From: an uncultured Fibrobacteraceae bacterium
GTDB lineage: Bacteria; Krumholzibacteriota; Krumholzibacteriia; LZORAL124-64-63
DNA length: 44,126 nt
Direction: 5' to 3'
NCBI GenBank assembly: GCA_964484595.1
Contig: CAZAHC010000001.1
Location: 1-44,126, forward strand
Under the pieces are notes generated by a model. The model saw only the letters and a program-made list of their open reading frames with translations, made no database searches and was not told the origin of the DNA. This document shows, piece by piece, positions 25,891 through 27,364 of this stretch; within the stretch, counting starts at the first letter, position 1; the number at the start of each line of letters is the position of its first letter. A program made the position numbers and the translations under genes.

Positions 25891-27033
25891 ATGGCAGGAA
25901 AAACAGACCCCGAGGAAAAGCCGTGCTGCTGTGGCGGCGCTCCCGTCCAGCTCGAACCGGCGGTCCAGGTATCGCGGGCGCTGCCGCCGGCCGAGGGCCA
26001 CTGGATCGCCGGCACGGTGCAGACACCGGTCGGCGAGATTCCGCGGGTCACCACCGAGCTGCGCTGGCCCGACCGCCTGACCGCCTGGCGAGCACGCTGC
26101 GGGATCCGGCGCCTGCATTTCACGGTTCCGCCCGGCCTGTACGCGGTCGGCGATCCCGATCCCGAATCGCCGGTCCTGGTCTCGGCCAACTACCAGCTGA
26201 GCTTCGATCGGCTGCGGTCGCAGCTGGCCGGCCGCCCGGCCTGGATCCTCGTGCTGGACACCAGGGGGATCAACGTCTGGTGCGCCGCCGGCAAGGGCAC
26301 CTTCGGGACGGAGGAGTTGTTGCGCCGCCTGGCCCTGGTCGGACTGTTCCGGGTCGTTTCGCACCGGACCCTGATCGTCCCCCAGCTCGGCGCCACCGGC
26401 GTGAGCGCGCACCAGGTCAAGGACCGTAGCGGGTTCAAGGTCGTGTTCGGCCCGGTGCTGGCCGAGGACCTGCCCGCCTTCCTAGACGCCGGCCTGCGAG
26501 CAACCCCCGAGATGCGCCGGGTCCGATTCCCGCTCCGGGACCGCCTCGTCCTGGTGCCGGTGGAGGTGGTCGGCGCCGCCCGGATTTCCCTCCTCGTGGC
26601 CGGCGGCCTCTTCGTGCTGTCGGGCCTGGGCGCGGGGATCTTCTCGGTCGCCCGCGTCCTCGAGAGCGGGCCGGCCAGTGCCCTGTTGCTGCTGGGGGCC
26701 GTCCTCGCCGGCACGGCCCTCGTTCCGGCCCTGCTGCCCTGGCTGCCCGGCCGGGCCTTCGCGGTCAAGGGGGCCGTGGTCGGCTGGCTGTTCCTGCTGG
26801 CCGTGGGACTGCTGGCCGGGCAGAGCTCGGGTCTGCTGGCGAACTGGGCGGTCACGGTCGGCTGGCTGTTGATGGCGCCCGCGGTGACCAGCTACCTGGG
26901 GATGAACTTCACCGGAGCCTCGACCTTCACCTCACTCTCCGGCGTCCTGAAGGAGATGCGGATGGCCGTGCCGGTCCAGATCGGCTGCGCCGCCCTCGGC
27001 CTGGGATTCTGGCTGACCGGTCGCTTTATCTGA
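25891..27033 (+). CDS. hgcA: corrinoid mercury-methylation protein HgcA
   Basis: The diagnostic cap-helix motif GINVWCAAGKGTFGT is present, with NVWCAAGK at 26272..26295. The C-terminal half has about 4-5 TM helices. The start is ATG 25891 or ATG 25852. The upstream part of the 769-aa ORF is antisense to P4. Confidence 0.9.
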   Translation: MAGKTDPEEKPCCCGGAPVQLEPAVQVSRALPPAEGHWIAGTVQTPVGEIPRVTTELRWPDRLTAWRARCGIRRLHFTVPPGLYAVGDPDPESPVLVSANYQLSFDRLRSQLAGRPAWILVLDTRGINVWCAAGKGTFGTEELLRRLALVGLFRVVSHRTLIVPQLGATGVSAHQVKDRSGFKVVFGPVLAEDLPAFLDAGLRATPEMRRVRFPLRDRLVLVPVEVVGAARISLLVAGGLFVLSGLGAGIFSVARVLESGPASALLLLGAVLAGTALVPALLPWLPGRAFAVKGAVVGWLFLLAVGLLAGQSSGLLANWAVTVGWLLMAPAVTSYLGMNFTGASTFTSLSGVLKEMRMAVPVQIGCAALGLGFWLTGRFI

Positions 27034-27061
27034 CGCCGCGGAGCCGGCAGGAGGGTTTTCG

Positions 27062-27364
27062 ATGATCTTGCGCTACTTGCCCGAGGTGGTGACCCTGGAG
27101 CTGGACCCGACCAGGTGCGACGGCTGCCGCATGTGCCTGCGCGTCTGCCCGCAGGGCGTGTTCACCTTCGTCGATAAGCGAGCCGAGATCGCCGACCGGG
27201 ACGCCTGCATGGAGTGCGGGGCCTGCGCTTTGAACTGCGAGGCGGGCGCTCTTACCGTGCGCAGCGGCGTCGGCTGCGCCGAGGCGATCCTGCGAGGCAT
27301 GCTGAGCGGCACCGAGCCCACCTGCGACTGCGGGACCGCTGACGAGAAGACTTCCTGCTGCTAG
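27062..27364 (+). CDS. hgcB: 2x[4Fe-4S] ferredoxin HgcB
   Basis: AGGAGG lies 7 nt upstream of the start. Two CX2CX2CX3C clusters are present (CDGCRMCLRVC and CMECGACALNC), plus a C-terminal Cys pair (TSCC). It starts 28 nt after hgcA. Confidence 0.9.
   Translation: MILRYLPEVVTLELDPTRCDGCRMCLRVCPQGVFTFVDKRAEIADRDACMECGACALNCEAGALTVRSGVGCAEAILRGMLSGTEPTCDCGTADEKTSCC

Follow-up and report, generated by a model that had tools for sequence, protein, structure and literature searches.

Results

The hgcA and hgcB genes

Do two adjacent genes on the longest contig of an uncultured bacterium's genome encode a genuine mercury-methylation system, or a relative of it with another role? Methylmercury is a neurotoxin of food chains, and, to our knowledge, no genetic marker of its production by microbes other than hgcAB is known. 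The locus considered here lies on contig CAZAHC010000001.1, whose whole 44,126 bp (66.4% GC) are referred to below as the window. It consists of hgcA, coding for a corrinoid membrane protein of 380 aa (25891-27033, plus strand, stop codon at 27031-27033), and hgcB, coding for a 100-aa ferredoxin with two [4Fe-4S] motifs (27062-27364, plus strand). A previous interpretation made from the letters of the window alone (hereafter the sequence-only reading) had claimed an hgcAB mercury-methylation pair at this position, and our results bear this out. We assign a probability of about 0.9 to the reading that these are orthologues of hgcA and hgcB, forming a two-gene operon of their own in a bacterium of the Krumholzibacteriota type. 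The pair is intact and genuine, and the kind of gene it represents is already well known.

Searches with profile hidden Markov models (HMMs), which the sequence-only reading had proposed as a check for hgcA, gave matches above the cut-off for both proteins. HgcA scored 446.7 bits against the NCBIfam HgcA model NF040863 (cut-off 275 bits) over profile positions 1-324 of 325, and HgcB scored 117.5 bits against the HgcB model NF040864 (cut-off 99 bits) over positions 1-93 of 93. The Pfam match of HgcA was to the general family CdhD and those of HgcB to the Fer4 families. This is the only HgcA gene of the host genome. The two genes are separate, with no fusion; the gap between them measures 28 nt and includes a strong AGGAGG ribosome-binding site (27049-27054, plus strand) placed 7 nt ahead of the hgcB start. 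HgcA gains 13 residues if translation starts at an in-frame ATG at 25852; the resulting 393-aa form is the one picked by a public gene caller, and every HgcA feature discussed here is preserved with either start.

The sequence features on which the claim had been built are all present. The cap-helix motif NVWCAAGK is encoded at 26272-26295 (plus strand; HgcA residues 128-135), and N128, V129, W130, C131, and G134 are invariant across 58 homologues. The codon of the conserved cysteine was found exactly where the sequence-only reading had placed it, at 26281-26283, and corresponds to Cys131, the presumed lower axial ligand of cobalt. This residue is aligned to a Thr in chain 2h9a_A of the corrinoid iron-sulfur protein (CFeSP). 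The C-terminal part of HgcA is a multi-helix membrane domain, and the adjoining ferredoxin carries the motifs CDGCRMCLRVC (residues 19-29) and CMECGACALNC (residues 49-59), in which Cys19/22/25/29 and Cys49/52/55/59 form two CX2CX2CX3C patterns. HgcB has, moreover, Cys72 and the terminal pair Cys99-Cys100.

The N-terminal tail of HgcA, disordered in the structural model with a predicted local distance difference test score (pLDDT) below 50, contains three consecutive cysteines, Cys12-Cys13-Cys14 (25924-25932, plus strand). Most HgcA proteins were described to carry a Cys-Sec (CU) pair in a formerly missed N-terminal extension (Haft and Gwadz, bioRxiv 10.1101/2022.07.06.499078), and the Cys-only forms were reported in the same work to be "packed" with additional Cys. 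The triplet found here is the all-Cys form of this motif. At the corresponding tail position, 46 of approximately 96 homologues have either CC (41 sequences) or Cys followed by TGA (five sequences). The latter five are delta-proteobacterial homologues (L007, L010, L052, L054, L057), in whose tails (residues 24-40) an in-frame TGA comes right after a Cys; these are likely selenocysteine (CU) forms truncated by gene callers. We considered this Cys-TGA as a new feature of delta-proteobacterial HgcA tails and rejected it, since it is already given in the above preprint, where HgcB is also reported to be at times a selenoprotein, at residue 73. In the window, HgcA and HgcB are both all-Cys forms despite the presence of tRNA-Sec, SelB, and a SelD-type protein in the host.

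The locus was also found in other assemblies. The 393-aa HgcA protein is identical on four recorded contigs; no exact database match was obtained for the 380-aa form, the recorded form being the one of 393 aa. Contigs from three metagenome samples of the Joint Genome Institute (JGI; 3300013120, 3300009128, and 3300013117) share 99.94-99.95% identity with the window over 9.2, 6.4, and 2.0 kb, respectively, and keep the same hgcAB neighbours. Because the identical protein and 99.9%-identical DNA occur in these three other metagenome assemblies, the hgcAB locus, including the Cys131 codon, is not an assembly artefact, an objection that the sequence-only reading had itself raised.

Predicted structure of HgcA and proposed mechanism

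An AlphaFold model of HgcA was built on the 58-sequence alignment and had a mean pLDDT of 88.1 and a predicted TM-score (pTM) of 0.83. Following the disordered N-terminal tail, the model has a beta/alpha domain and then five long helices, which DSSP assigned on the model to residues 222-243, 253-280, 290-309, 319-343, and 349-379. The C-terminal membrane domain thus delimited (26554-27027, plus strand, residues 222-379) has five helices by hydropathy as well as in the model. In a Foldseek search of the PDB, the top match was 9a0b_A (E 1e-22, 48% identity, 331 columns), followed by CFeSP structures; the CFeSP large subunits 4c1n, 2ycl, and 2h9a matched the corrinoid domain of HgcA, approximately 125 residues in length, with a root-mean-square deviation (rmsd) of 2.3-2.6 Å.

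The mechanism of the HgcA/HgcB family reportedly goes back to work by Parks et al. in 2013 and later studies, and the proteins encoded here would be expected to follow it. A corrinoid would be bound in the CFeSP-like domain of HgcA with the cap-helix Cys131 beneath the cobalt, which HgcB would reduce to Co(I) via its two [4Fe-4S] clusters. The cobalt would then take up a methyl group of methyl-tetrahydrofolate origin and transfer it to Hg(II), yielding methylmercury. Hg(II) would likely be held and handed over by thiols, namely those of Cys72 and the terminal Cys pair in HgcB and those of the CCC stretch in the HgcA tail, while the five-helix domain would anchor the complex in the inner membrane. 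The host encodes a full-length, B12-dependent MetH (1536 bits); therefore, it uses cobalamin and makes methyl-folate. The steps of this mechanism, the roles of the Cys sites, and the methylation activity itself we infer from knowledge of the family and from the work on its Cys and selenocysteine motifs (bioRxiv 10.1101/2022.07.06.499078).

Host genome and distribution of hgcA

The host is a probable member of the Krumholzibacteriota. The best matches of the IspH protein encoded in the window share 64-71% identity with it; of the seven that carry an organism name, three are assigned to Candidatus Krumholzibacteriota or Krumholzibacteriia, three to "bacterium" without further rank, and one to Gemmatimonadales. 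Its genome amounts to 3.37 Mb in 378 contigs (67% GC), of which the window is the longest, and is 88% complete with 1.4% contamination. The sequence-only reading had described a high-GC, selenocysteine-using, complex-I-bearing bacterium, and each of these traits was confirmed: the GC content is 66-67%, tRNA-Sec and SelB (338 bits, cut-off 242) are encoded in the genome and a SelD-type AIRS protein in the window, and the latter also contains a gene for a complex-I-type antiporter subunit. In the host assembly (G000) rpoB was not found and 23 tRNA genes were detected. Both results fit an incomplete metagenome assembly, and the absences of acetyl-CoA synthase, the ArsR subfamily described below, HgcC, and MerB are thus to be read accordingly. 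For MerB, no match was obtained in the host genome, but none was obtained in control genomes either.

Of the 208 phylum genomes, 14 gave an HgcA match above the cut-off, four of them from the host's own family of 91, the host being included in both counts. In a quick tree of 122 sequences, HgcA of the window fell into a group of eight with a Shimodaira-Hasegawa-like approximate likelihood ratio test (SH-aLRT) value of 88. The other members are two genomes of the same family (G011 and G023, with HgcA identities of 65% and 61%, respectively), one genome of another family of the class (G046), and four metagenome sequences. The group is nested in a 17-member clade with 99% support, and other HgcA copies of the phylum are spread over at least three other clades. 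Forcing twelve phylum copies into monophyly cost 301 log-likelihood units and was rejected by the approximately unbiased (AU) test (p 3.7e-43); therefore, the hgcA copies of the phylum do not share a single line of descent, a pattern in keeping with more than one acquisition, the usual history of hgcA. In a collection of 5.8 billion proteins, the closest protein beyond the host's own did not exceed 67% identity.

The GC content at third codon positions is 0.90 for hgcA and 0.92 for hgcB, and ten window genes taken for comparison range from 0.75 to 0.93. This match in composition argues against a recent import and suggests that hgcAB is an old resident of the host. Genes adjoining hgcA in L106 and L103, two of the nearest metagenome loci, encode products with 27-42% identity to host proteins.

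A further observation concerns three hgcA-bearing phylum-mates, in which a second, weaker CdhD-type match of approximately 62-65 bits was detected in frames of 465-500 aa (G064:C11:3805-4203, G068:C274:1725-2108, and G207:C47:92416-92799). These second proteins are probably true CFeSP, and some members of the phylum may therefore have a Wood-Ljungdahl pathway. The gene copy in G064 has an in-frame TAG.

Neighbourhood of hgcAB and the missing regulator

Upstream of hgcA, a 108-bp divergent intergenic region (25783-25890) contains no regulator gene and must hold the hgcAB promoter; no match was found there in a promoter scan limited to the sigma-70 consensus. It is followed by a divergently oriented gene for a secreted protein of 365 aa (24685-25782, minus strand), which gave no Pfam match. 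This protein is unassigned to any family, stands outside the hgcAB system, and is the same in the three other assemblies. On the other side, nine bases past hgcB, lies a convergent gene for a polytopic membrane protein of 555 aa (27374-29041, minus strand), likewise outside the hgcAB system. The orientations of both flanks, divergent upstream and convergent downstream, agree with those given by the sequence-only reading. Its description of the downstream product as a convergent membrane protein also stood, while the "GT-C-like" label could be sustained less well: the only match was TMEM260-like, with an E-value of 0.019, below the cut-off. Within the family, 12 of 90 genomes encode a homologue of this protein (32-40% identity). 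No HgcA match above the cut-off was recorded for these 12, and no neighbouring gene was common to these homologues within 1.5 kb. In contig L110 (JGI 3300009128), positions 2789-4447, which correspond to 27374-29041 of the window, hold this gene split into two calls (360 + 131 aa). Since only three substitutions separate this contig from the window, the split may reflect a nonsense polymorphism within the population. Genes for a STAS protein, a Wzy_C protein, and a GT4 glycosyltransferase are located farther from hgcAB.

As the sequence-only reading had stated, no arsR-like regulator gene adjoins hgcAB; the only ArsR-family gene of the window (9873-10286, minus strand; Pfam HTH_5, E 1e-11) lies 15.6 kb away, and an IspH gene occupies 10318-11298. 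In the nearest loci the arrangement is different. A Cys-rich ArsR gene was detected upstream of hgcA and on the same strand in all five of the nearest loci for which upstream DNA was available, with its match centred approximately 0.2 to 2 kb from the start of hgcA. These hgcA-linked ArsR proteins, examined at L082:2633-3046(-), L083:1754-2128(-), L106:5622-5996(+), and L103:3767-4105(+), form a tight subfamily, with a Cys-rich insertion LVSCCxPG...C...RACVGELG in all four and a C-terminal CC in three, and resemble a sensor dedicated to metals or metalloids. The ArsR of the window is only 20-25% identical to the proteins heading hgcAB in G011, G023, L106, and L103 and has neither this SCC...C insertion nor the terminal CC, so that by sequence it appears unrelated to the hgcA-linked subfamily.

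A tblastn search with hgcA-linked ArsR proteins gave no match in the window, and no orthologue was found in the genome, where the best match, obtained with one of four queries, was a stretch of 88 residues with 39% identity. The sole real difference between this locus and its close kin is that the regulator was lost or that hgcAB moved away from it. By the same type of search, most hgcAB loci retrieved from other phyla likewise have no arsR of this subfamily. HgcC, an AbrB-type protein encoded beside hgcA (model NF040962), had no match in the 88%-complete genome.

Two side observations were made on gene order and frames. At L103:3767-7432 the order is arsR, a gene for a 309-aa Rdx (SelW/SelT-like) protein, a gene for a DsbD-type membrane protein, hgcA, and hgcB, so that thiol-redox genes sit between the regulator and hgcA. 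At 1386-2786 (plus strand) of the window, an outer-membrane barrel-like frame ending in ...FQFGDTFNF is interrupted by an in-frame TAA (1953-1955), with high GC at third codon positions on either side; a pseudogene, a pair of genes, or a sequencing error could each account for this.

Alternative explanations

Since HgcA has relatives with other roles, we weighed the assignment against readings in which the proteins belong to another kind. One is a non-methylating HgcAB-like paralogue, as in fused HgcAB, with some other corrinoid-dependent role. The fusion model NF043039 does match both proteins (HgcA, 203.8 bits; HgcB, 55.3 bits), yet both scores are below its cut-off of 285 and far under the 446.7 bits obtained with the HgcA model. 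In addition, hgcA and hgcB are not fused, and their products are canonical in the cap-helix motif, in the set of five helices, and in the CC at the end of HgcB; with HgcA also nested among two-gene HgcA sequences in the tree, such a paralogue is very improbable. Even smaller, close to negligible, is the chance that a CFeSP of the AcsC/CdhE type, belonging to the Wood-Ljungdahl pathway, was misread as HgcA. The Pfam assignment to CdhD and the sequence and fold matches to CFeSP over residues 78-198 would be expected of such a protein; however, the HMM scores refute it, the CFeSP gamma model giving 68.6 bits against a cut-off of 306. The match is limited to approximately 125 residues, and HgcA has a Cys for the Thr and a membrane domain, with neither an N-terminal [4Fe-4S] domain nor a TIM barrel. 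Acetyl-CoA synthase was, furthermore, not found in the 88%-complete genome. The grouping with fused paralogues or CFeSP proteins that the sequence-only reading had warned of was therefore not seen.

Other readings accept the proteins as HgcAB and concern their task or their state. The pair could be a true orthologue whose physiological job is another methyl transfer or a metalloid-linked reaction, mercury methylation being a side reaction. In line with this, hgcAB stands behind a Cys-rich ArsR-type regulator in the five nearest loci, such regulators have been tied to the arsenic response (PMC10349881), and the patchy occurrence of hgcA in the phylum (14 of 208 genomes) is as expected for an accessory function. 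Nothing in the window, however, points to another substrate, and the locus has neither an ArsR gene nor any adjoining ars gene. Such a job would still be compatible with membership in the family; we regard it as unlikely, though less so than the other alternatives. Another reading has the locus out of use, as a remnant that is silent or in decay after losing its regulator. HgcC was not found either, nor was a consensus promoter, but the promoter scan was restricted to the sigma-70 consensus, and most hgcAB loci retrieved from other phyla are also devoid of this arsR subfamily. Neither frame is broken, all invariant residues are kept, the codon composition of the two genes is like that of the host, and the protein is identical in four assemblies. 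We thus consider a remnant improbable.

Returning to the orthologous hgcA-hgcB pair, several points weigh against this assignment or parts of it. Translation of hgcA may start at 25852 or at 25891. Residues 129-136 of the cap helix have low confidence in the AlphaFold model, which is expected because this helix packs on a cofactor absent from the model; its geometry is thus only predicted. The grouping of HgcA with genomes of the same family is moderately supported, by the SH-aLRT value of 88 in a quick tree. Finally, the route of the methyl donor is uncertain; a search of the 88%-complete genome yielded no acetyl-CoA synthase (CdhC).

Implications

The locus adds one uncultured lineage, probably of the Krumholzibacteriota, to the likely methylators, which is a modest addition, and leaves the accepted view of how the system works unchanged. 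What sets it apart from the known kind is a little-reported host group and the absence of an ArsR-type regulator gene. Full-text literature searches returned no statement on hgcA in the Krumholzibacteriota; a paper mentioning both hgcA and Latescibacterota presents the latter only as a merA carrier. As a tentative and somewhat doubtful extension, the Krumholzibacteriota might be an unreported group of potential methylators, with hgcA in approximately 7% of species and of several separate origins, and this lineage might have lost the ArsR-type switch, so that hgcAB would be expressed without metalloid sensing. Operons headed by ArsR and those without a regulator provide a natural contrast for asking how hgcAB expression is controlled.

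Comparison with known systems

The pair resembles in most respects HgcAB of Pseudodesulfovibrio mercurii ND132 and Geobacter sulfurreducens PCA. In all cases two adjacent genes encode proteins that score above the cut-offs of both HMMs, and HgcA combines a CFeSP-like corrinoid domain, a cap helix N(V/I)WCA(A/G)GK with its Cys, and five C-terminal membrane helices. HgcB combines its pair of [4Fe-4S] motifs with a further conserved Cys around residue 73 and ends in Cys-Cys. The differences lie in the HgcA tail, which has Cys-Sec in the reference proteins (bioRxiv 10.1101/2022.07.06.499078) vs. Cys-Cys-Cys here, and in the host, which, unlike ND132 and PCA, stands outside the classic groups of sulfate or iron reducers. 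The locus also departs from the ArsR-regulated operon of the ND132 type, as no co-oriented ArsR-like gene is located upstream.

At the structural level, the closest entry is 9a0b, the published coevolution-based model of the HgcAB complex (Cooper et al. 2020). The comparison with our HgcA model, in which both structures are predictions, gave a TM-score of 0.57 and an rmsd of 6.3 Å; therefore, the two models position the domains differently with respect to each other. With the CFeSP large subunit (2h9a, 2ycl, 4c1n, 4djd), HgcA shares the corrinoid-binding Rossmann-like domain (residues 78-198). Unlike that subunit, HgcA has no TIM barrel and no [4Fe-4S] domain at its N terminus; the Thr that faces the cobalt is replaced by Cys, and a membrane domain is added. 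From the HgcAB-like fusions of NF043039 the locus is set apart by its score below their cut-off and its two separate genes.

The nearest counterparts are the arsR-hgcA-hgcB operons of G011, G023, G046, L106, and L103. Their HgcA proteins are 61-65% identical to the one described here and belong to the same group of the tree, and their HgcB proteins have the same layout. The upstream gene encodes a Cys-rich ArsR in these operons vs. a divergent secreted protein in the window.

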